Virus record (IMG/VR): IMGVR_UViG_3300006204_000004
Coordinates: 62,067-126,066 of that record
Reading direction: 5' to 3' (one strand)
From: a virus
Taxonomy: Duplodnaviria; Heunggongvirae; Uroviricota; Caudoviricetes
DNA: 64,000 nt
Position 1 is the first letter of the stretch. Each line of letters opens with the position of its first letter. The notes beneath the pieces were generated by a model. The model searched no databases. It was given only the letters and a program-made list of their open reading frames with translations, and was not told the DNA's origin. A program made the translations under genes and the position numbers. This document shows positions 29,523 to 63,253 of this stretch, in pieces.

Positions 29523-31187
29523 ATGTCTGCAAAAACAAAAAGACCAAATACGATAAAATATATGGGCAAGAAAATTGCAAACAATGGTGATGAAAATGAT
29601 TATTCAAAAACACCTATTGGTGCTGATTCTGATAATGTTGATCGACCAGATAATAGTACTGTTGAAGAATCTCTTGTCAAAATTGAAACGGAAAAAGTTG
29701 AAATTATTCCTGTAGAAGTTCTTCCAGAATCAAATATTAAAGTATATCCATACATCTATGCTTTAGTTAAGCCAAGTGAATCAAAAGGCATTCTTTATGA
29801 GTATAAAAATGATCGCTGGATTAATTATAGTAATGGTGCAAAAGGAATTTGGGTTGGAACAAAGGAAGAATGTGTTAAAGATTTTAATAATATAGAATCA
29901 GGAACAATTGTAATTATTATAAAAAAGAAATCAGATAGTGGTGAAACTCATACACATGACTATGTATGTCAGATTACTAAAGAGCCAACATATTCACAAT
30001 CAGGGATTAAAACTTATACTTGCTTTTTATGTGGGGATACCTACACAGAAGAAATTCCTGCGCTTATCGATAGTATTAATCCAGCAGGCGTAATTAGAAT
30101 TGGAGACAATGAATATGCAACATGGAAAGATACTATTTCATTTGATAGTTATTATAAAGATGATCAGACTGTTACGATTGAAGCCACTGATAATGAAACA
30201 GGTGTAAAAGAAATTTCTTATTACTTATCAAATACTGCCATAAATGATTCATCTATTGGCACAGTTACTTGGACATCATATACTGATCCATTTACAATCC
30301 AACCAAATGATAATTATATTGTGTATGCACGCATAACAGACAATGCAGATAATGTAACCTATATCTGTTCCGATGGTATTGTAATGGATAACATTCCACC
30401 TGTGTTTGAAGGACTAGAAGATGGCGGTATCTACCCTGCTGGCACTGTTCTAACTGTTGAGGAAGGCGCTACCCTATCTGTCAATGATGAGGTTGTAGAA
30501 CTTGTAAATAATTCCTATACGTTTACAGAACCGATGGATAATATTAGATTATCCATTACTGATAGAGCTGGAAATGCCAATTTTATAAGTATTGTAGTCG
30601 AAAATACTAATATCGGCACAGCACCTAAAGAAGAAATCCTAAATTGGGAATATTCACTCGACAAAAATTATAAAACCATTACATTGAAAAAATTTAAAAG
30701 GTATGATGTAACAGATGTAAGAATATACGGAAGTTATGATATAGATGGGGATATATATGCTACTAGATTAAATTCTGAAGTGGAATATACAAGTGATGGA
30801 CTATTTTCTTCAAAGATAGATTTGAAAACAGTTACTTTTAATGATGATGTTGATACACGTAACGTGACAAATATATCTGCAATGTTTTATAATTGTTTTT
30901 CATTAGAAAGTGTTAATTTTGGTAAGAACTTTACTACAGACAAAGTTGAGAGAATGGCATATATGTTTCATGGCTGTTCGTCTCTAAAATCATTGGATTT
31001 AACAAATTTTAATAACGCAATTGCAAAAAATACTTACAATGGACATTTATTAATGTTTGGTAAATGCAATAATTTATCAGCGATATATGTATCAAGAGAT
31101 AAATGGTCAGAAGATATAAGGCAAGATGCTGGGAAAAATAATATGTTCTCTGAATGTGGAGTATCTAATGTAACTTATGTCGATTAA
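29523..31187 (+). CDS. Receptor-binding/tail-fibre protein: Ig-like and Cys-rich repeat region plus C-terminal BspA-type leucine-rich-repeat cassette A (expressed copy)
   Basis: LRR_5/BspA-type repeats (NISAMFYNCFSLESVNFG..., AYMFHGCSSLKSLDL...). The constant region contains the inversion crossover sites at 30537-30594. Confidence 0.65.
   Translation: MSAKTKRPNTIKYMGKKIANNGDENDYSKTPIGADSDNVDRPDNSTVEESLVKIETEKVEIIPVEVLPESNIKVYPYIYALVKPSESKGILYEYKNDRWINYSNGAKGIWVGTKEECVKDFNNIESGTIVIIIKKKSDSGETHTHDYVCQITKEPTYSQSGIKTYTCFLCGDTYTEEIPALIDSINPAGVIRIGDNEYATWKDTISFDSYYKDDQTVTIEATDNETGVKEISYYLSNTAINDSSIGTVTWTSYTDPFTIQPNDNYIVYARITDNADNVTYICSDGIVMDNIPPVFEGLEDGGIYPAGTVLTVEEGATLSVNDEVVELVNNSYTFTEPMDNIRLSITDRAGNANFISIVVENTNIGTAPKEEILNWEYSLDKNYKTITLKKFKRYDVTDVRIYGSYDIDGDIYATRLNSEVEYTSDGLFSSKIDLKTVTFNDDVDTRNVTNISAMFYNCFSLESVNFGKNFTTDKVERMAYMFHGCSSLKSLDLTNFNNAIAKNTYNGHLLMFGKCNNLSAIYVSRDKWSEDIRQDAGKNNMFSECGVSNVTYVD
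30537..30594 (+). repeat. Inversion crossover sites R1 (30537-30575, 39 bp) and R2 (30572-30594, 23 bp) inside the fibre gene
   Basis: R1 matches the reverse complement at 33868-33906 (37/39). R2 matches the reverse complement at 32141-32163 (23/23). Homology to the inverted cassettes stops exactly at these sites. Confidence 0.7.
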
Positions 31188-31219
31188 CGAAATAAATTTC
31201 TCATTTACAGAAAATATAT

Positions 31220-31280
31220 CTTCCATCTTAGATGATTAATAGATTGAATTTTTATCTTGAATAATCATCTAAGATGGAAG
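31220..31280. terminator. Bidirectional hairpin between convergent cassettes A and B
   Basis: Perfect 19-bp inverted repeat CTTCCATCTTAGATGATTA ... TAATCATCTAAGATGGAAG with a 23-nt loop. Confidence 0.55.
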
Positions 31281-31298
31281 CATAGGAATATTTTTATT

Positions 31299-32129
31299 TT
31301 AATCTACATAAGTAACCTCTGATACACTACATTCATAAAACATCATCATTGTATCTGCTTGAGAAATTATCCATTTTGTCTTAGAAACAAAAATATTTAT
31401 AAGATTTGAGCAATATTGAAACATTCCAAGCATATTTTTAACCTTAGAAGTATTAAAACTTGCTAGGTCTAAAGATTTTAAATTTTTACATCCATTAAAC
31501 ATATTAGACATAGATTCTACTTTTTGTGTATCAAATGGAATAGTTAAATCACCTAGATTTTCACATTTACAAAACATGAAATCCATATCTGTTACATTAG
31601 ACGTAATTAATCCATCTATATTAAGATCTCTTAAATTTATACACTTATAAAACATATATTCCATATTTGTAACATTTGAAGTGTTAAAATTAGATAAATC
31701 TATAGATTCTATTTTTTCACATCCAGAAAACATATACTCTAAATTGACAACGTTAAACTTATTATTTCCCCAATTAATTGTTTTTAAATTTTTGCATCCA
31801 TCAAACATATGACTAAAATCTGTAAAATCAGAAATACCTATATCACTAAAATCTATTGATACTAAATCAACACAATGTTGAAATAATCGGCTCACTTCTC
31901 CAAATTTAACGCCATTTTTAAATGTTATTGATTTTATTCCATATGTCATAAAAAGTGCAAAATAATTACCACCATATCCATCATCCATACTAATAAATGT
32001 ATTATATTTTTTATTATTTACTGTATATGTATCATATATAGTTATATCCTTTGCTTCTCCTTTGTGTTTATACGAGTGTAATCGTATTTCATTATTTTCT
32101 TCATTTAAAATGTAACTCCAATCCAACAA
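31299..32129 (-). CDS. Promoterless alternative C-terminal BspA-LRR cassette B (inverted orientation)
   Basis: Homology to cassette A begins at NANFISI, encoded by R2' just upstream of the annotated TTG. The C-terminus ECSVSEVTYVD parallels ECGVSNVTYVD of cassette A. No upstream promoter or RBS context. Confidence 0.65.
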   Translation of the reverse strand: MLDWSYILNEENNEIRLHSYKHKGEAKDITIYDTYTVNNKKYNTFISMDDGYGGNYFALFMTYGIKSITFKNGVKFGEVSRLFQHCVDLVSIDFSDIGISDFTDFSHMFDGCKNLKTINWGNNKFNVVNLEYMFSGCEKIESIDLSNFNTSNVTNMEYMFYKCINLRDLNIDGLITSNVTDMDFMFCKCENLGDLTIPFDTQKVESMSNMFNGCKNLKSLDLASFNTSKVKNMLGMFQYCSNLINIFVSKTKWIISQADTMMMFYECSVSEVTYVD

Positions 32130-32140
32130 AGGATCTATAC

Positions 32141-32163
32141 CAATACTTATAAAATTGGCATTT
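32141..32163 (-). repeat. R2' inverted crossover site
   Basis: Exact reverse complement of 30572-30594 (AAATGCCAATTTTATAAGTATTG). Confidence 0.7.
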
Positions 32164-32299
32164 TAAGATCTATTCAGGCTTGTATTTGTATATAGATATG
32201 TGCCTGGCGTGGCTTAATTTGGGAAATAGAGTATATTTATTGTGTACTTTTGTAGAAAATTTTCGGAATGATTTTTTTGAGAACTATTTGAAGAAAACC

Positions 32300-32328
32300 T
32301 TGAAATCTATTGTCAGATATGCTATATT
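32300..32328 (+). promoter_or_regulatory. Sigma-A-like promoter for antitoxin-like sRNA A
   Basis: TTGAAA-17 nt-TATATT. Confidence 0.5.
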
Positions 32329-32334
32329 ATAAAT

Positions 32335-32430
32335 ATAAAAGGAGCAACCGCCCACAAAGTGGTTGACTTCCCAGGTTAATTATATAAACCTACCTGATCC
32401 GGCAAGATACAAGGTAGGTTTATTTATTTT
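32335..32430 (+). ncRNA. Candidate antitoxin sRNA A (par/RNAII-like), ends at bidirectional terminator
   Basis: ~95 nt from promoter to hairpin AAACCTACCT-16 nt-AGGTAGGTTT plus ATTTATTTT (32386-32430). Convergent with peptide gene A. Confidence 0.45.
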
Positions 32431-32519
32431 CGCTTGTTATTCCTATCTATGTAGGCAAGCAGCGCGATTAGAAAGTTACCGCCTAAAAGCAAAAGGCTTA
32501 AGACTTGGTAAGTATCCAT
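32424..32519 (-). CDS. Fst-like type I toxin peptide A (31 aa: MDTYQVLSLLLLGGNFLIALLAYIDRNNKRK)
   Basis: SD GGGAGGTGGTG 8 nt before the ATG. The SD can pair with upstream CCTCCCT (sequestering hairpin). Stop lies immediately at the shared terminator. Minus-strand promoter TTGAAG-17-TATGAT at ~32600-32628. Confidence 0.5.
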   Translation of the reverse strand: MDTYQVLSLLLLGGNFLIALLAYIDRNNKRK

Positions 32520-32694
32520 CTGCACCACCTCCCTTCTTTTCAAGTTAGGGAGGTTACCACCTTGTAACACGATTACTCCGTAAGATAATCATATCACAGA
32601 TGGTATCCTGCTTCAACAATTTTTTACATGATTCTCTATTGTTTTAAGGTGTGTTTGTACTTACGTCTTAAAAACTGCGATTATTTATTGATAG

Positions 32695-33906
32695 TTAGTT
32701 AATCGCAAGTGCTCCCCAAGGAGAGCCGGTGGCAGATCCGTGGTAAGTAATGTGAGGTACATTATAAAATGCGTCTGGGTCAATAGATTCAACAGATGAT
32801 GGAATTATTAAATTAGATATATTAGTACAATTATGAAATGCACTTCTTCCAATCTTTATTATACTATCAGGAATTATAAAATTCGTTAATAATTTTTGAC
32901 CATAGAATAATAGCGAAGGAATTTCTTCTATATTTTGAGATTGTATAGTAAAGCTTGTAAATTTTACAAATTGCCAAATATTACTTATTTTATTTACATT
33001 TTCTCCGATATATACATCACATCCGCTTTCGGAACATAAATATCGTAATTCAATACCAAATGTATCAGCATGATCTGAATTATAATAAAATTCTGTAACG
33101 CTTTTTGAATCTCCAAAACTTGAAGCATGATTACTTATTAGCTTATTATAACTATTTGGAATTGTAATTTTCTTTAAATTAGGACATTTATTAAAAATTC
33201 CTGCACCAATTTCTTCAACTCCTTCTGGAATATTTACACTTATCAAATTTGTTGCATTTTCAAATGCTAATTCATTAATAATTTTGACTGAATTTGGAAT
33301 TTCTATAGATGCTCCACTTCCAATTCCATCAATAGTTAATATAGAGCTACATTCTGAAAAACATCTTAAAGGTATTTCTTTAATGCCAGAAGAAAGAACT
33401 ATATGTTGTAAATTTGAACAACAAATACCATTTATTTTCGTTACGTTATTTGTCATATTAATTGTTTTCAATGACGAACTTCTTATATAATGTATATCAG
33501 AAACAGTATCAGGAAGTGATATACTTATTAAATCGTTAACTTCTTTAAGATTGATTTTGGTTGTTTTATATTTTTGACCATTAAATTCAAAGGTGTCAGG
33601 GACTATAACATCACCACTCAACGATGTTAATCCCGTTTTGGAATAATTGTTTTCTGTTAATTCAAAATCTTCATACTCGCTTTTCCCGCAAACAGTACAA
33701 ATTCCATCAACAAAGTCATGGTGTCCACTGGCAGGAATGGTTTCTGTATAAGTATCACCACATTCACAAGTATAAGTTATAATCCCATCTTCTGTACATG
33801 TAGCTTCTTTTGTAATTTCTTGGGTATAATTATGTACATGAATTATATCTATACTAATTGAAGAACTATTTCCAGCTCTATCAGTTAAGGATAATCTAAT
33901 ATTATC
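32695..33906 (-). CDS. Promoterless alternative C-terminal cassette C (Cys-rich repeat plus BspA-LRR), inverted orientation, no start codon
   Basis: Annotated ORF (TTG at 33621) continues in frame upstream to 33918 with no ATG. The 5' end DNIRLSLTDRAGN is encoded by R1' and parallels DNIRLSITDRAGN of the expressed gene. Confidence 0.6.
   Translation of the reverse strand, partial: DNIRLSLTDRAGNSSSISIDIIHVHNYTQEITKEATCTEDGIITYTCECGDTYTETIPASGHHDFVDGICTVCGKSEYEDFELTENNYSKTGLTSLSGDVIVPDTFEFNGQKYKTTKINLKEVNDLISISLPDTVSDIHYIRSSSLKTINMTNNVTKINGICCSNLQHIVLSSGIKEIPLRCFSECSSILTIDGIGSGASIEIPNSVKIINELAFENATNLISVNIPEGVEEIGAGIFNKCPNLKKITIPNSYNKLISNHASSFGDSKSVTEFYYNSDHADTFGIELRYLCSESGCDVYIGENVNKISNIWQFVKFTSFTIQSQNIEEIPSLLFYGQKLLTNFIIPDSIIKIGRSAFHNCTNISNLIIPSSVESIDPDAFYNVPHITYHGSATGSPWGALAIN
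33868..33906 (-). repeat. R1' inverted crossover site
   Basis: Reverse complement of 30537-30575 with 2 mismatches. Confidence 0.7.
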
Positions 33907-33966: not shown

Positions 33967-33995
33967 TTGCATCTTTAAATTGTATATGCTATAAT
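33967..33995 (+). promoter_or_regulatory. Sigma-A-like promoter for sRNA B
   Basis: TTGCAT-17 nt-TATAAT. Confidence 0.5.
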
Positions 33996-34001
33996 TGTCA
34001 C

Positions 34002-34092
34002 AGGCAAAAGGATATAATAAGTCTATAAAGACAAAGAACGAAATCCCCGAACTGTGCTGGAACACTGTTCGGGGATTCTTCTTTACTTTTTA
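34002..34092 (+). ncRNA. Candidate antitoxin-like sRNA B ending at bidirectional terminator
   Basis: Hairpin AATCCCCGAAC-14 nt-GTTCGGGGATT at 34042-34077 followed by a T-rich tail. Convergent with peptide gene B. Confidence 0.4.
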
Positions 34093-34114
34093 TAGCGGTA
34101 AAGCATCCGCTAGG

Positions 34115-34261
34115 CTACTTGTTGTCCTCATTGTCGCTGTCCAACCATTTGCAGATATAGTAGGCAACTACACCAGCCATAACAGAAACTAAAAAGGATA
34201 TAATAATGTCTATAAAAACACCTCCTCCTGTTGCCAGGTATCGGTAAGACAACATAGTCAT
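34115..34261 (-). CDS. Small hydrophobic peptide B (48 aa: MTMLSYRYLATGGGVFIDIIISFLVSVMAGVVAYYICKWLDSDNEDNK), type I toxin-like
   Basis: TM core plus acidic tail. Directly downstream of the recombinase stop; its own stop abuts the shared terminator. SD is distant (AAAGGAG ~31 nt upstream), with possible coupling to a 5-codon leader. Confidence 0.4.
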   Translation of the reverse strand: MTMLSYRYLATGGGVFIDIIISFLVSVMAGVVAYYICKWLDSDNEDNK

Positions 34262-34304
34262 TATACCATATTCATCATTAATCGACAATATGCTCCTTTA
34301 TTAT

Positions 34305-35294
34305 TCAAATACAAAAATCTTTTCTTGGATGCTTCGTACACAGGATATCCTTTTGCTTTGAAACAGTAACATGCGTATATATTTCTGTAACATTGATAGA
34401 ACTATGCCCCAACATTTCCTGGATGTATCGAATATCTACATCTGCTTCTAATAAACTTGTTGCAAATGTATGCCGGAACATATGCGGTGTGATATGCAAG
34501 TTTATTTTAGCGACAGCAGCATACTTATTAATCATTCTGCGCACCGATTGATCGGATAAAGCTTCACCTATATTATTTATAAAAAAGTGATTTGTAGTTT
34601 CAATCTTTGTTCTGAATGTTTCTCTATATTCTTTTAGAATTTTTATTACTGGCTCATTTCCAATATGGATACGCCTTTCTTTGCTTCCTTTTCCGTAGAT
34701 CAATACTACTCCATTATCTAAATCAATATTGTTATCTTTTAGTTCACAAAGTTCTGATATCCTCATTCCTGTAGAAAATAAAAGCTCAATCACGGCTGCA
34801 TCCCTCAATGCATTTTTTCTTTGGTATTCTGTTTTAGAGTTATCTAATTGCTGATAAATAGATGCTAATAGTTTTTCTACTGTATTTAGTGGTATTGTTT
34901 TGGGTAATATGTTAGGTTCACGAAACTGTATTTGCAGTTTATTAAATGGATTTTTATAAATGATATCTTTGTATTCGAGATAATGAAAAAATGATTTTAT
35001 AGAAGCTATTTTTCTTTTGACAGTCTTTGGCTTATACTGTATATGTAGTTTAGATATATACTCTTCTATTGTGTTTGATGTGATATTTGTAATGGTAGGA
35101 TCTGAGATCCCTGCTGTAGATTGAACAAATTGTTTCAAATCAATACGGTATGCCTTTAATGTTTTTCGATCTAAACGCTTTTGTGACTCACAATATTTTA
35201 AATAATTTTCTATGTATGATTGTAAATTGCTTGTTAATGTGTTTGTAGACTTTTTCTTGGAGTAATTCTTTTCATTATTCATTGTTTTATTCAT
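34305..35294 (-). CDS. Tyrosine site-specific recombinase (XerC/D-Rci size), candidate shufflon invertase
   Basis: C-terminal catalytic region HTFATSLLEADVDIRYIQEMLGHSSINVTEIYTHV and an N-terminal core-binding domain. Lies ~400 bp from cassette C. Confidence 0.85.
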   Translation of the reverse strand: MNKTMNNEKNYSKKKSTNTLTSNLQSYIENYLKYCESQKRLDRKTLKAYRIDLKQFVQSTAGISDPTITNITSNTIEEYISKLHIQYKPKTVKRKIASIKSFFHYLEYKDIIYKNPFNKLQIQFREPNILPKTIPLNTVEKLLASIYQQLDNSKTEYQRKNALRDAAVIELLFSTGMRISELCELKDNNIDLDNGVVLIYGKGSKERRIHIGNEPVIKILKEYRETFRTKIETTNHFFINNIGEALSDQSVRRMINKYAAVAKINLHITPHMFRHTFATSLLEADVDIRYIQEMLGHSSINVTEIYTHVTVSKQKDILCTKHPRKDFCI

Positions 35295-40261: not shown

Positions 40262-41485
40262 ATGGGGGAGAAATATATGTCTGATAAATATGAAGAAAAA
40301 AATGTGCCATACAAAGATAATAAGTATTCAAAATCAAATTATCTAATATCTGCAAAATATGCTTCAAGTCTACTAGAAAATAAAATAACTGCTATATCGT
40401 TGGCAAAAATACAAAAAAAAGAGTATACAGAAGATAAGAATGGCAGAATTGTATGTAGTATGACTGCTAATGAATTGAGAAAATTGTTAAATGCGAATGC
40501 AGGATCGTTTTATTCACAGTTAGAACCAGTGGCGATGAATATGACATCAAGGACTATTGGGTTTAGTGATCCTAGTAGAAATGGTGGAATGTTTGACTAT
40601 ATTTCTGTTATAGATAGAGCAAGGTATGAAAATGGGGTATTTAGTATATTCTACAATTCGGACGTTAAAGAATATTTATCCGATTTTAAAGCAAATTTTA
40701 CAGTTTTAGAATTGCCTACGATGTTAAAATTTAAAAACGTATATAGTTTTAGATTGTATGAATTATTATCTAGTAAGTCATATTATAGAAAAGGTATTCC
40801 TAAAGAGCTAAAAACACAGGTGTTTAGGATCGAATTTAATTTGTCAGAATTGAAGCTAAACATGGGAGTAGTAAATGCTGAATTGGATGCTGTACGAAAA
40901 GAATTAAATAATAAACAGGCACCAAATTATGATAAGGCAATAGAAAAATCCCCTGAAAAAAAATTTAATACATGGTATGAATTTAAAAGGGGAGTGTTGG
41001 ATACAGCCATAAAGGAAATAAACAATAAAACAGATATGAAAGTAAGTTTCAATCCTTTGAAGGGTGGTCGGGGAGCTAAGGTATATGGCGTAGAATTTAT
41101 TGTTGATTTGACGGGCAAAAATGTAGAAGCTATTGAAAATGTTTTAGAAACAGTAAAAGAAATGACTGATGATGAAAAAATTGATTTTGTCATAGATGCA
41201 AAGATGATTCTTAAAGAATTTTCTACTAAAGATGTAAGAGTAATTTGTGAAAAGTCGGGATATGATATTGAAAAAATAAAAGAAGCGTATCACATATATT
41301 CTAAACAAAAAAATATATCTAATCCTACAGGATGGATGATTTCTTGTATAGAGAATGAGTATCAAAATGATTGGGATACTGGAAATGAAAAGAATAGTAG
41401 TTTTAATAATTTTAGTCAAAGAAAGTATAACTATGAAGAATTGGAACGGGAGTTACTCAATATGGGAATGTTTCACGGAAAATGA
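40262..41485 (+). CDS. Plasmid replication initiator (Rep_3-like, iteron-binding)
   Basis: Immediately downstream of the iterons. N-terminal region LISAKYASSLLENKITAISLAKIQ is typical of Rep_3 initiators. Confidence 0.6.
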   Translation: MGEKYMSDKYEEKNVPYKDNKYSKSNYLISAKYASSLLENKITAISLAKIQKKEYTEDKNGRIVCSMTANELRKLLNANAGSFYSQLEPVAMNMTSRTIGFSDPSRNGGMFDYISVIDRARYENGVFSIFYNSDVKEYLSDFKANFTVLELPTMLKFKNVYSFRLYELLSSKSYYRKGIPKELKTQVFRIEFNLSELKLNMGVVNAELDAVRKELNNKQAPNYDKAIEKSPEKKFNTWYEFKRGVLDTAIKEINNKTDMKVSFNPLKGGRGAKVYGVEFIVDLTGKNVEAIENVLETVKEMTDDEKIDFVIDAKMILKEFSTKDVRVICEKSGYDIEKIKEAYHIYSKQKNISNPTGWMISCIENEYQNDWDTGNEKNSSFNNFSQRKYNYEELERELLNMGMFHGK

Positions 41486-42995: not shown

Positions 42996-43024
42996 TTGCA
43001 AATGAGCAAGGTATCATTTATAAT
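42996..43024 (+). promoter_or_regulatory. Sigma-A promoter for sRNA C
   Basis: TTGCAA-17 nt-TATAAT. Confidence 0.55.
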
Positions 43025-43030
43025 CAGATT

Positions 43031-43142
43031 AGAAACAGCCAAAGGGTATTTGCACGTCCGATGGTTGTCACCGGAAACTAATTGTGTTTCAAATTAATTT
43101 AGGCTATCCCCTATTGCGAGTAGGTGATAGCCCTTTTATTTG
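43031..43142 (+). ncRNA. Candidate antitoxin sRNA C (RNAII-like)
   Basis: ~110 nt ending at hairpin GGCTATC-17 nt-GATAGCC plus CTTTTATTTG (43102-43142). Convergent with peptide gene C. Confidence 0.45.
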
Positions 43143-43213
43143 CGGTGGTTGTCGAGATAAGATAAAGCTGCGAATACAACTAACAGCAACGTCAAAATTT
43201 CTAACGTATCCAT
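43136..43213 (-). CDS. Fst-like type I toxin peptide C (25 aa: MDTLEILTLLLVVFAALSYLDNHRK)
   Basis: SD AAAGGAGGT 4-5 nt before the ATG. 5' UTR hairpin CTTTCC-gggaac-GGAAAG overlaps the SD. GGTGGTTGT at the mRNA 5' end is complementary to ACAACCACC at its 3' end. Paralogous to peptide A. Confidence 0.5.
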   Translation of the reverse strand: MDTLEILTLLLVVFAALSYLDNHRK

Positions 43214-43615
43214 ATGTACCTCCTTTCCGTTCCCGGAAAGTACAACCACCAGACTATCCCTACGCTGTTCTAATCTGACTATGAAATATTATAGCATATT
43301 ATGTCTGTTATTGCTATACGAAAAAATAAATTATATATTGCATTTGATTGTAAGAAATGATAATATAAAAATGTAATTCAATAATTAATTGTTTTATCCA
43401 ATAAAACTCCTGAGATGCACCCCACAATTTGTATCTTAGGAGTTTTATTATTATAGAAGAATTCTATAATAATAGTTAGTCAAGTTTTATAATCTTTTAA
43501 CCTTATTTTAATGTTTTCTCAATATTTTGTTGTATTTTCATATATAGTTGTGTTATAGTTGTAATTAACTTATATACTTACAAGAGTAAATTCAACAAAT
43601 AAGGAGGAACCAGTT

Positions 43616-61249: not shown

Positions 61250-63253
61250 TTATGATATCAATTTAATAAAATCTTCTTCTGAAATAATAGGTACATTTAA
61301 TTGTTTTGCTTTTGTATTTTTCCCAGACGTGCTTGTAATATTATTGTTTATTAGGTATGAGGTCTTTGATGATACTGATCCTGATACTTTTCCACCAAAC
61401 TGTTCAATAACACTTACTAGATCATTGCGACTTTTATAGTGATTAAGTGATCCTGTAATAACAAATACTTTGTTCGATAGAATCAAATTGTCAGTTATAT
61501 TATATGGTTCTTTTATATCGGATTCTATATTAAACTCTTTTGAAAGTTTTATTATTTCTTTTTTCTTTTGTGTGATATAATCATTCAATGATTTACACAT
61601 TACTTCTCCAAACCCATCCAGATCATTAGCATTAAACTTCCCATAGTTATAAAATACATAAATGTCGTCTAATAAATCTCTAATAGCGATTTTCTTACAA
61701 AATGATGATACTGTTTTGCTTGCAGTTCGTCCAATCAAAGGAATACATAATCCATATATGAATCTATCCAATGTAGTATTTCTACTTTTTTCAATGCTCT
61801 CTAGCAGCTTATCTACAGATTTCTTACCAAAACCATCAAGTTTATACATTTCTTCCATATGTTCTGACAGGCAGTAAATATCTATAAATGAATTTAACCA
61901 TCCTAAATCAATAAATTTTTGTAGTGTCTGTTCAGATAATCCATCTATATTGATTGCATTTTTACTTACAAAATGTGAGAGTTTACCAAGTAACTTACCT
62001 TTACAATCTGGATTAGTACATATTAGAATTTCTGTATCGCTGTCTTTAACCCTTTGTGTATTCCACCCACAAACAGGGCAAACACTTGGAATGTAAATAG
62101 ATTCTTTTGCTGATATACAATCCATTTTTTCTGCATACTCTATCTGGGGGATAATCATATTTGCCTTATAAACACCAATTTCTTGATACTTTGACACAAT
62201 TCCAAGACTTTTCATAATTGAAATATTATGAAGTGAAGCTTTCTCAACTATTGTTCCATCAATCTCTACCGGCTCAAATACGGCTGTTGGCGTTAAAACT
62301 CCTGTCTTACCCATTGTAAATTCAACATCCAACAACTTTGTAGGATAAACATCATCATAGAACTTATATGCCAGAGAGTGTTTTGGATGGTGTCCTGTTA
62401 CTCCTAATGATTCTCCATAGAGAATATCATTATATACAATAACTAATCCATCTATTGGAAATCTTTTTTCTTTCGCAATATACTTTAGTGAATCAATATA
62501 CTCTTCATAATGATTTTTCCACCCCTTTATTAATACACATGGAACAATTTCAAATCCTAATTTTTCTATACGAGAAAGTCTATATGACATTGTTACCACA
62601 TCATAAACATCTTCAATTCCAGGAACTTTCCATGCAATGAATTTAATATATCTTTGTGATGCTACTCCACTATCTAATTGCCTAACTGATCCGCTTACAA
62701 GATTCCGTGGATTCTTATACTTTTCCTTCTCAGGAAGTTTGCTGTTAATCTTTTCAAAGTCATCATATGTAATGATAGCCTCGCCTTCAACTTCCAAATG
62801 TCCCGTGTAATCTATATGCAACGGAATATTTTCAAATACTCTTGCATTATGAGTTATGATTTCTCCCTCTTCACCATTTCCACGAGTCTCTGCCTGAATT
62901 AACTCGCCATTCTCATAAGTAAGCAGTACAGTTAAACCGTCCATCTTGCACATAAGTAAACAATCTCTATCACCAGCAAATTTCTTTAAATCGTCTACCG
63001 ACTTCGTTTTATCGAGTGATAACATAGGATGCGAATGTTTCACCTTTTCAAGATTTGACTTGACTTCATATCCAACTGTATGTGTTGGCGAATTGCTCAT
63101 TACAACTTTTGTTTCTTTCTCTAACTTTTTTAGTTCATCAAATAAGTTGTCATATTCTTGATCTAATATTTCTGATACAGAATTGTTGTAATATGAATCT
63201 CTATATTGATTAAGCTGCTGTGTCAATTTCTTTATTCTTTGTACTTTATCCAA
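61250..63253 (-). CDS. ligA: NAD-dependent DNA ligase
   Basis: KxDG adenylation motif (CKMDGLTV). Cys4 zinc finger CPVCG...CTNPDC. C-terminal BRCT. Confidence 0.9.
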   Translation of the reverse strand: MDKVQRIKKLTQQLNQYRDSYYNNSVSEILDQEYDNLFDELKKLEKETKVVMSNSPTHTVGYEVKSNLEKVKHSHPMLSLDKTKSVDDLKKFAGDRDCLLMCKMDGLTVLLTYENGELIQAETRGNGEEGEIITHNARVFENIPLHIDYTGHLEVEGEAIITYDDFEKINSKLPEKEKYKNPRNLVSGSVRQLDSGVASQRYIKFIAWKVPGIEDVYDVVTMSYRLSRIEKLGFEIVPCVLIKGWKNHYEEYIDSLKYIAKEKRFPIDGLVIVYNDILYGESLGVTGHHPKHSLAYKFYDDVYPTKLLDVEFTMGKTGVLTPTAVFEPVEIDGTIVEKASLHNISIMKSLGIVSKYQEIGVYKANMIIPQIEYAEKMDCISAKESIYIPSVCPVCGWNTQRVKDSDTEILICTNPDCKGKLLGKLSHFVSKNAINIDGLSEQTLQKFIDLGWLNSFIDIYCLSEHMEEMYKLDGFGKKSVDKLLESIEKSRNTTLDRFIYGLCIPLIGRTASKTVSSFCKKIAIRDLLDDIYVFYNYGKFNANDLDGFGEVMCKSLNDYITQKKKEIIKLSKEFNIESDIKEPYNITDNLILSNKVFVITGSLNHYKSRNDLVSVIEQFGGKVSGSVSSKTSYLINNNITSTSGKNTKAKQLNVPIISEEDFIKLIS

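Follow-up and report, generated by a model that had tools for sequence, protein, structure and literature searches.

Among the type I toxin-antitoxin systems, those most similar to the locus considered here, a short module in a sequence assigned to a Caudoviricetes virus, are from Bacillus subtilis, particularly bsrG/SR4 of the SPbeta prophage, in which a convergent antisense RNA overlaps the 3' end of the toxin mRNA. The bsrG mRNA is closed by a long helix, P1, in which nt 1–35 pair with nt 232–262 and which branches into stem-loops SL1–SL3, with the Shine-Dalgarno (SD) sequence in the SL1 stem and the stop codon in SL3 (Jahn and Brantl, 2013; PMC3834814). The terminator loop of SR4 contacts loop 3 of bsrG, and binding frees the 5' 33 nt of the mRNA as a single strand and lengthens the helix holding the SD from 4 to 8 bp, which adds translational inhibition to RNase III-dependent decay (PMC3834814). 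In bsrE/SR5 and bsrH/as-bsrH the toxins are short, about 30 aa, and the antisense RNA again overlaps the 3' end; systems of this kind are widespread in Firmicutes, and SR5 leaves the structure around the bsrE SD unchanged (Brantl and Müller review; PMC6562991). For txpA/RatA of the B. subtilis skin element, the proposed role is stabilization of an excisable element, and a 3'-overlapping RNA of about 110 nt has been detected for another family member, EF3263 of Enterococcus faecalis (Fozo et al., 2010; PMC2887945). Convergent transcription to a common hairpin and a small hydrophobic toxin are also found in par (fst, RNA I/RNA II) of the E. faecalis plasmid pAD1. The locus compared with these systems below, module A, lies at about 32300–32630 of a 64,000-nt stretch (the window) that corresponds to positions 62,067–126,066 of IMGVR_UViG_3300006204_000004. 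It is very probably a type I toxin-antitoxin module of the TxpA/BsrG/BsrE (Hol_Tox) family with the RNA architecture of bsrG/SR4.

The elements of module A, with open reading frame abbreviated as ORF, untranslated region as UTR and small RNA as sRNA, are as follows (window coordinates; the ends of both transcripts are predictions):

32588–32616, minus strand: toxin promoter, with -35 TTGAAG (32616–32611), a 17-nt spacer and a TG-extended -10 TATGAT (32593–32588)
near 32581, minus strand: predicted start of toxin transcription
32336–32581, minus strand: predicted full-length toxin mRNA of about 245 nt, comprising the 5' UTR, the 31-codon ORF, the stop-codon hairpin and a 3' region complementary to the entire sRNA
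32569–32579, minus strand: 5' strand of helix P1, GGAGUAAUCGU, whose partner is 32351–32341
32547–32553, minus strand: anti-SD CCUCCCU in the 5' UTR
32528–32533, minus strand: SD sequence GGGAGG, 8 nt 5' of the ATG, read directly in the sequence
32424–32519, minus strand: toxin ORF, 31 aa plus TAA, MDTYQVLSLLLLGGNFLIALLAYIDRNNKRK, with ATG at 32519 and TAA at 32426–32424
32386–32421, both strands: common hairpin, beginning 2 nt past the stop codon; as the intrinsic terminator of the sRNA (plus strand) it precedes UUAUUUAUUUUCG, and on the minus strand it is the stop-codon-proximal stem-loop, the equivalent of bsrG SL3
32341–32351, minus strand: 3' strand of helix P1, GCGGUUGCUCC, exactly complementary to the sRNA 5' end
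32335–32434, plus strand: predicted antitoxin sRNA of about 97–100 nt with two stem-loops, SL1 (32341–32371) and the terminator
32300–32328, plus strand: antitoxin sRNA promoter, with -35 TTGAAA (32300–32305), a 17-nt spacer and a TG-extended -10 TATATT (32323–32328)

Much of this had been proposed in a preliminary description of the same DNA, and most of it stands. The two promoters are where they had been placed, the 31-aa ORF with its hydrophobic helix and basic tail is confirmed, and its stop codon does adjoin the hairpin at 32386–32421. The CCTCCCT of the 5' UTR and the SD, which had been suggested to pair, are both present and form an 8-bp stem in the single-sequence minimum free energy (MFE) fold. 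The convergent sRNA, first put at about 95 nt and here at 95–100 nt, ending at the stop-proximal hairpin, holds as a prediction, given the stability of its fold and the covariation of its terminator stem, and the assignment to a type I toxin-antitoxin-like module is borne out by the Pfam match, the conserved promoters and the sRNA fold. It was also correctly remarked that the gene had escaped the initial ORF track, whose cut-off of 60 aa is well above 31 aa, and that the module is GC-rich relative to its surroundings: G+C is 0.37–0.41 over 32300–32600 and 0.22–0.29 in the flanks. Overall, module A is some 12–15 percentage points above the surrounding element (about 40% vs. 25%), which could reflect either RNA-structure constraint or acquisition from a genome richer in G+C. 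The length of the toxin mRNA, the nature of the overlap between the RNAs, and the toxin family have had to be revised, as described below.

The peptide consists of a hydrophobic helix, VLSLLLLGGNFLIALLAYI, followed by a basic C-terminal tail, DRNNKRK. It matches Pfam family Hol_Tox (PF16935) over its full length, residues 1–31 aligning with profile positions 1–34 of 34 (40.8 bits against a cut-off of 23.3, E = 2e-10). Fst_toxin (PF13955), the family to which the preliminary description would have assigned it and with which a homology search had been suggested, gives no match to the peptide even at E values up to 10. When sequences of known toxins were used as queries, BsrG, TxpA and BsrE all scored above the Hol_Tox threshold, BsrE highest of the B. 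subtilis toxins tested (47.9 bits) and TxpA, at 59 aa, only over its N-terminal 17 residues, while Fst matched PF13955 and not Hol_Tox. BsrG, at 38 aa, is larger than the 31-aa peptide with its DRNNKRK tail; FLIALLAYID in the latter closely resembles FIIALLTYIE, the central to C-terminal motif of BsrE, the two peptides having been compared through Pfam scores and not in an alignment of curated sequences. The full-length PF16935 match without one to PF13955, the results for the known toxins, and the survey of Fozo et al. (PMC2887945) together place the toxin in the TxpA/BsrG/BsrE family and not with Fst.

Comparison of 61 ORFs gave a pN/pS ratio (nonsynonymous to synonymous) of 0.17 in the toxin frame vs. 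0.67 and 3.2 in the other two frames, with most variation at third codon positions. By this sequence comparison the ORF is under purifying selection, and the peptide is thus both translated and selected. A plus-strand ORF of 61 aa (32363–32548), antisense to the toxin, was considered and rejected; it runs through the conserved terminator, and the frame-specific selection favors the minus-strand frame. Protein database searches were made with a 48-aa, GTG-extended reading of the peptide. Of the 52 relatives found, 50 carry PF16935; the name “putative holin-like toxin” is attached to three, which come from Petralouisia, Eubacterium and Clostridium. Many appear to cover the GTG extension, but this reflects only the upstream starts chosen by gene callers and the conservation of the 5' UTR at the DNA level.

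Promoter-like hexamers are not in themselves informative in DNA this rich in A+T. A local scan of 4.6 kb found 36 matches where 32 were expected from shuffled sequences, so no excess over chance is apparent, even though the plus-strand promoter, with 10 of 12 positions matching, shares the top score; the case therefore rests on comparative evidence. For this, 82 distinct loci were compared, each module being anchored on its ORF. For the best-scoring promoter of the toxin strand, the spacing is 17 nt in 78 of them, usually as TTGnnn-17-TAnnnT, with a TG extension in 69 and with the -10 ending 68–72 nt before the ATG in 57. The antisense strand is similar, with 17-nt spacing in 76 loci (usually TTGnnn-17-TATAnT) and a TG extension in 61, and in nearly all of these its promoter is at a similar short distance from the nearly invariant stem-loop SL1, aaccgcccacaaagtggtt. 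At neither promoter do the loci resemble one another in the spacer or in the sequence outside the module, and the module edges coincide with the two -35 boxes. Functional promoters are expected to behave in this way, keeping their hexamers and spacing as spacers and flanks diverge. With the Pfam match, the retention of both promoters in about 76–78 of 82 loci, and the covariation described next, the features are judged to be real.

The structural evidence comes from an alignment of 62 toxin-strand regions, taken from -10 box to -10 box and folded with RNAalifold without guidance. The 5' end of the toxin RNA is paired with its far 3' end, GGAGUAAUCGU (32579–32569) with GCGGUUGCUCC (32351–32341), in an 11-bp helix P1 in which 95% of cells are paired and nine of the 11 pairs show compensatory changes (for example, G-C in 45 sequences vs. 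A-U in 16, or C-G in 21, U-A in 20 and U-G in 17). The values observed for the structure tested as a whole were reached in none of 500 shuffles, and sliding the partners by 1–3 columns lowered pairing from 96% to 34–50%. U-G pairs are frequent (columns 19–294, 22–291 and 16–297) and can form on the toxin strand only, which argues that P1 is an RNA helix; a terminal inverted repeat acting at the DNA level was rejected as its cause on these grounds. Since the first nucleotides of the sRNA are exactly complementary to the 3' strand of P1, the toxin transcript under selection would span the whole sRNA gene. The covariation thus points to a 3' end at about 32336 and a length of about 245 nt, in place of the approximately 200 nt first suggested.

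The hairpin shared by the two RNAs appears to serve them differently. On the toxin strand it is followed by a short U-run (2–4 U) and so should be a poor terminator. The U-tract that completes the terminator of the plus-strand sRNA is formed by the reverse complement of the toxin's final codons and stop codon, so the sRNA overlaps the 3' end of the ORF (stop codon and last two or three codons). Five of the 11 stem pairs covary across loci. The picture of convergent, terminator-overlapping RNAs in the preliminary description is therefore only partly retained: transcription is convergent and the hairpin is common, but the overlap is not confined to the terminator, as the toxin mRNA would extend across the entire sRNA gene and the sRNA covers the end of the ORF. 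The core of sRNA SL1 is nearly invariant, and in 39 of 40 sequences it includes a G-U pair possible on the plus strand only. A basal GGAG/CUCC extension of this stem-loop has little support when loci are compared, many of its cells being unpaired, and P1 in the toxin mRNA accounts better for the conservation of GGAG. Downstream of the sRNA there is no gene on the plus strand.

In the window itself, the sRNA folds into its two stem-loops with an MFE of −30.5 kcal/mol (z = −4.3), and the 246-nt toxin RNA reaches −92.9 kcal/mol (z = −6.6 relative to shuffles) in a fold that holds P1, a second long-range helix, the 8-bp anti-SD/SD stem and the stop-codon hairpin. The SD is nearly invariant in the 62 loci, and its pairing with the anti-SD is kept in 96.5% of cells.

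These features are close to those of bsrG/SR4 in most respects. In both, the toxin belongs to PF16935, a convergent antisense RNA overlaps the 3' end, a long 5'–3' helix closes the toxin mRNA with its 3' strand complementary to the sRNA, the SD is in a stem, the stop codon is beside a stem-loop complementary to the sRNA terminator, and the module is on a phage-related element. The Rfam BsrG model (RF01412) aligns with the locus end to end and on the right strand over 32582..32310 (22.6 bits, local E 0.002–0.005), and in the same manner with 11 of 12 relatives (17.8–39.5 bits, E down to 6e-6); RatA was not detected at the locus in the Rfam search. Differences are the smaller sRNA, about 97 nt with two stem-loops as against 183 nt with four for SR4, and the hosts, which are Clostridia, particularly Lachnospiraceae, and not Bacillus. 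The likeness to bsrE/SR5 and bsrH/as-bsrH lies in the short toxin and the 3'-overlapping antisense RNA, and that to txpA/RatA and EF3263 in the proposed stabilization of an excisable element and, for EF3263, in an RNA of comparable size.

How module A would work can be modelled on bsrG/SR4, bsrE/SR5 and txpA/RatA. The minus-strand promoter would give the toxin mRNA of about 245 nt, coding for a 31-aa, single-helix membrane peptide, and the strong, conserved plus-strand promoter an sRNA of about 97 nt that matches, base for base, the complement of the 3' part of that mRNA (3' strand of P1, linker, stop-codon hairpin and last codons). In the free mRNA, the 5' end would be paired with the far 3' end in P1 and the SD would be base-paired, so that the full-length message should be poorly translated. 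Contact with the sRNA would probably start at the complementary hairpin loops and proceed to an extended duplex, exposing the toxin mRNA to RNase III and to later decay. The sRNA would also displace the mRNA 5' end from P1, leaving the anti-SD (CCUCCCU) locked on the SD; in this the proposed sRNA would differ from SR5, which does not alter the structure at the bsrE SD. If the element were lost, or transcription of the sRNA turned off, the toxin mRNA would persist longer than the sRNA, and membrane damage by the peptide would be expected. Killing upon loss of the sRNA would make the module an addiction or stabilization device for its carrier. By analogy with the Bacillus systems, this is its probable role, with the toxicity of the peptide a prediction.

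Several observations weigh against this interpretation or parts of it. At gathering thresholds, Rfam finds nothing in the whole window, so neither RNA reaches the threshold of any family, and every BsrG score, for the locus and for the 11 relatives, is below the gathering score of 55; the relationship to BsrG at the RNA level is accordingly a distant one. The bsrG mRNA has its own terminator, SL4, after P1, whereas no clear terminator for the toxin mRNA is visible here, and SR4 has an additional, non-complementary 5' stem-loop where the antisense promoter of module A directly abuts P1. The changes in the anti-SD/SD helix are one-sided only, with no compensatory pairs in the 62-locus alignment, so the translational switch draws only on conservation and analogy. 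Further, the consensus fold pairs the anti-SD with the 3' sequence GGGAGGCUAACCAC and the SD with a coding stretch, GCGCUGCUUGCCU, three pairs of which covary; the SD is predicted to be base-paired in either fold. As to toxicity, relatives of type I toxins do not always have it, BsrE being only weakly toxic (PMC6562991) and YhzE-2 not toxic (Fozo et al., 2010; PMC2887945), and a literature search found no experimental study, of expression or toxicity, for the Lachnospiraceae subfamily.

This subfamily is a large one. With each species represented by one genome, a scan yielded at least 499 related loci, which among the matches listed are mostly from Lachnospiraceae, with up to three loci per genome and some loci with two tandem copies; 21 related loci are on viral contigs. 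The identical peptide is found on four other contigs, of which one (L004) shares the gene context of the window and at least one (L001) has a different context. Searches of plasmid and phage collections added little. With the module as a blastn query against plasmids, matches were confined to three stretches some 50 nt long in Enterocloster plasmids, and the peptide as a tblastn query gave no match in either collection, a result that is uninformative because the low-complexity filter may mask a hydrophobic peptide. On four genome contigs (L045, L056, L057 and L063) two Hol_Tox modules are in tandem within 0.4–0.9 kb; one of the copies in L057 is truncated, and in L025 the ORF is frameshifted and extended. 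Tandem duplication and decay of this sort are typical of type I toxin loci. The type of system is already known from Bacillus and no new mechanism is revealed, but the Bacillus TxpA/BsrG/BsrE family is extended to a gut-Clostridia subfamily that is often multicopy and also present on phage contigs. Databases recognize the peptide alone (PF16935, with some records as “putative holin-like toxin”). The 62-locus alignment provides comparative support for a 5'–3' helix equivalent to the one determined biochemically for bsrG, and the loci could seed covariance models with which to annotate such RNAs in gut genomes.

The surroundings of module A in the window are those of a tail-fiber shufflon, the main features of which are:

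30537–33906: invertible segment holding the module, with inverted repeats at 30537–30592 and 33851–33906
30562–30594 and 32141–32173: second repeat pair
29523–31187: expressed tail-fiber gene, 554 aa
31299–32173 and 32695–33906: silent BspA-LRR/DUF285 C-terminal cassettes, in opposite orientation
34305–35294, minus strand: tyrosine recombinase

The crossover repeats are inside coding sequence and the recombinase is adjacent. Module A lies between the two silent cassettes, which face the expressed 554-aa gene. A look-up of the recombinase identified two assemblies of the same element, L110 and L109. The first is collinear with the window at 100% identity. In the second, 30537–33906 is inverted (98.6% identity over 3370 nt, with flanks 100% and 99.8% identical), producing a 741-aa fusion gene, and the 331-nt module is 100% identical but flipped; location of the module within an invertible region, as first claimed, is thereby directly confirmed. 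A third contig breaks within the inverted repeat. When the recombinase was compared with viral contigs for related shufflons, both close matches ended at the recombinase.

The module is differently placed relative to the tail-fiber genes in the two forms. In the window orientation the sRNA gene is codirectional with the expressed tail-fiber gene; in the L109 form it is the toxin gene that is codirectional, about 65 nt downstream of the fused 741-aa gene. Toxin-antitoxin genes have been proposed to stabilize cassette arrays in integrons. It is conceivable that the position in the shufflon is itself functional, with read-through tipping the balance of toxin and antitoxin according to the state of the switch, or with the module penalizing deletion of the cassette block, but we regard this as unlikely. 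Just past the stop codon of the expressed tail-fiber gene is a perfect inverted repeat of 19 bp, CTTCCATCTTAGATGATTA / TAATCATCTAAGATGGAAG, enclosing a loop of 23 nt (31220–31280). It may be a terminator, in which case it would, in the present orientation, shield the cassettes and the module from read-through.

The gene content of the window suggests a phage-plasmid-like element. It includes a Rep3 initiator (40262–41485), ParA/ParB (39599–37808), NrdD and an NAD-dependent ligase (LigA), together with a 2555-aa NlpC/P60 protein, a Peptidase_S74 tail-fiber protein, a Peptidase_G2 protein and tail-spike-type proteins. Defense genes are also present (a type I restriction-modification methylase and specificity subunit, and an AbiEii-like ATPase with DUF4435). 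A megablast search of the window from 25 to 45 kb against the phage collection gave no match. With Rep3, ParA/ParB, tail-fiber genes, NrdD and LigA on the carrier, a role in maintenance is plausible, and module A flags this as a likely function on such an element.

Other explanations for the locus have to be weighed against a type I module of the TxpA/BsrG/BsrE family. Two promoters converging on a common stop-proximal hairpin, and a peptide that is a single hydrophobic helix with a charged tail, would also describe a par/Fst-type module, for which maintenance would likewise be the role on a plasmid. Such a module should have an Fst-family toxin, only the bidirectional terminator in common between its RNAs, and repression through sRNA 5' repeats acting on the translation-initiation region, as in pAD1 RNA II/RNA I. 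The peptide has instead its full-length Hol_Tox match and none to PF13955 at E up to 10, the opposite of the behavior of Fst. Complementarity of the DRa/DRb kind, between repeats in both 5' regions, was looked for in 29 loci, and the best duplexes of sRNA with toxin 5' region were no better than with shuffled sRNAs (mean −34.5 vs. −32.1 kcal/mol, mean z −0.55). Covariation in P1 puts the toxin 3' end past the sRNA start, making the overlap the whole sRNA, and the sRNA reaches the ORF end, a trait listed for the TxpA and BsrE-G-H families and not for Fst/RNAII (T1TAdb; PMC8594479). Membership in the par family is thus very unlikely. A reading of the unit as mobile or insulating DNA, with its terminal inverted repeat (GGAGUAAUCG ... 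CGGUUGCUCC) that of a miniature inverted-repeat transposable element (MITE) or a transcription insulator and the ORF and RNAs incidental, would account for the compactness of the unit, about 330 bp, its occurrence in many unrelated contexts and its presence several times over in one genome. It is difficult to reconcile with a repeat that tolerates U-G pairs on one strand, which is an RNA signature, with an ORF under frame-specific purifying selection, or with the conservation of both promoters, and we give it almost no credence.

The two remaining alternatives concern what the peptide does. It might be an antisense-regulated but non-killing membrane regulator, such as a competence inhibitor like ComI of the B. 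subtilis plasmid pBS32 or a modulator of the host membrane; some relatives in the family are non-toxic or weakly toxic, the strong conservation of the peptide fits a specific interaction, and there is a weak match to NCBIfam ComI. At 16.2 bits this match is far under the cut-off of 55, however, and heavy translational and antisense control, multicopy occurrence in genomes and carriage on mobile elements are all hallmarks of type I toxins, so that a regulator of this kind seems rather improbable. That the peptide is a holin or holin accessory, with the antisense RNA timing lysis, is suggested by the Pfam name “putative holin-like toxin” and by the tail-fiber genes and NlpC/P60 protein of the element. 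Against this, the module is not beside an endolysin gene but between silent tail-fiber cassettes, the identical module in L001 is flanked by genes without any phage-related Pfam family, several copies are possible per genome, and holin-like action of membrane-targeting type I toxins such as BsrG has been questioned (Brantl and Müller review; PMC6562991). A lysis function is extremely unlikely.

Besides module A, with its TxpA/BsrG/BsrE-family toxin, the window contains two further loci of related appearance. A second, diverged module at 42996–43293, with the toxin on the minus strand, has the same layout, which counts in favor of the reading given to module A. A 25-aa peptide, MDTLEILTLLLVVFAALSYLDNHRK (43212–43136), is encoded behind the SD sequence GGAAAGGAGG; it has no Pfam match, and phmmer gave only a weak match to the module A peptide (E 0.05). 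A TG-extended -10 TATAAT is found at 43293–43288, a hairpin follows the stop codon, and a 5'–3' helix of about 16 bp joins TCAGAUUAGAACAGC to GCUGUUUCUAAUCUGA, abutted by a convergent plus-strand promoter, TTGCAA(42996–43001)-17-TATAAT(43019–43024). The 260-nt RNA has a predicted fold of −97.9 kcal/mol (z −8.7).

A third small toxin-antisense pair is possible at 33967–34290, just outside the inverted repeat and adjoining the recombinase. Its minus-strand promoter would be TTGTCG-17-TATAAT (34288–34260), upstream of an ORF that ends at 34115, has an uncertain start codon, and encodes a hydrophobic helix with an acidic tail (...GVFIDIIISFLVSVMAGVVAYYICKWLDSDNEDNK). The sole family match is a weak one to NCBIfam CD_typeI_toxin (15.8 bits vs. 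a cut-off of 60). A hairpin at about 34041–34078 has T-runs on both strands, a convergent plus-strand promoter, TTGCAT(33967–33972)-17-TATAAT(33990–33995), is present, and there is a local rise in G+C as in module A.

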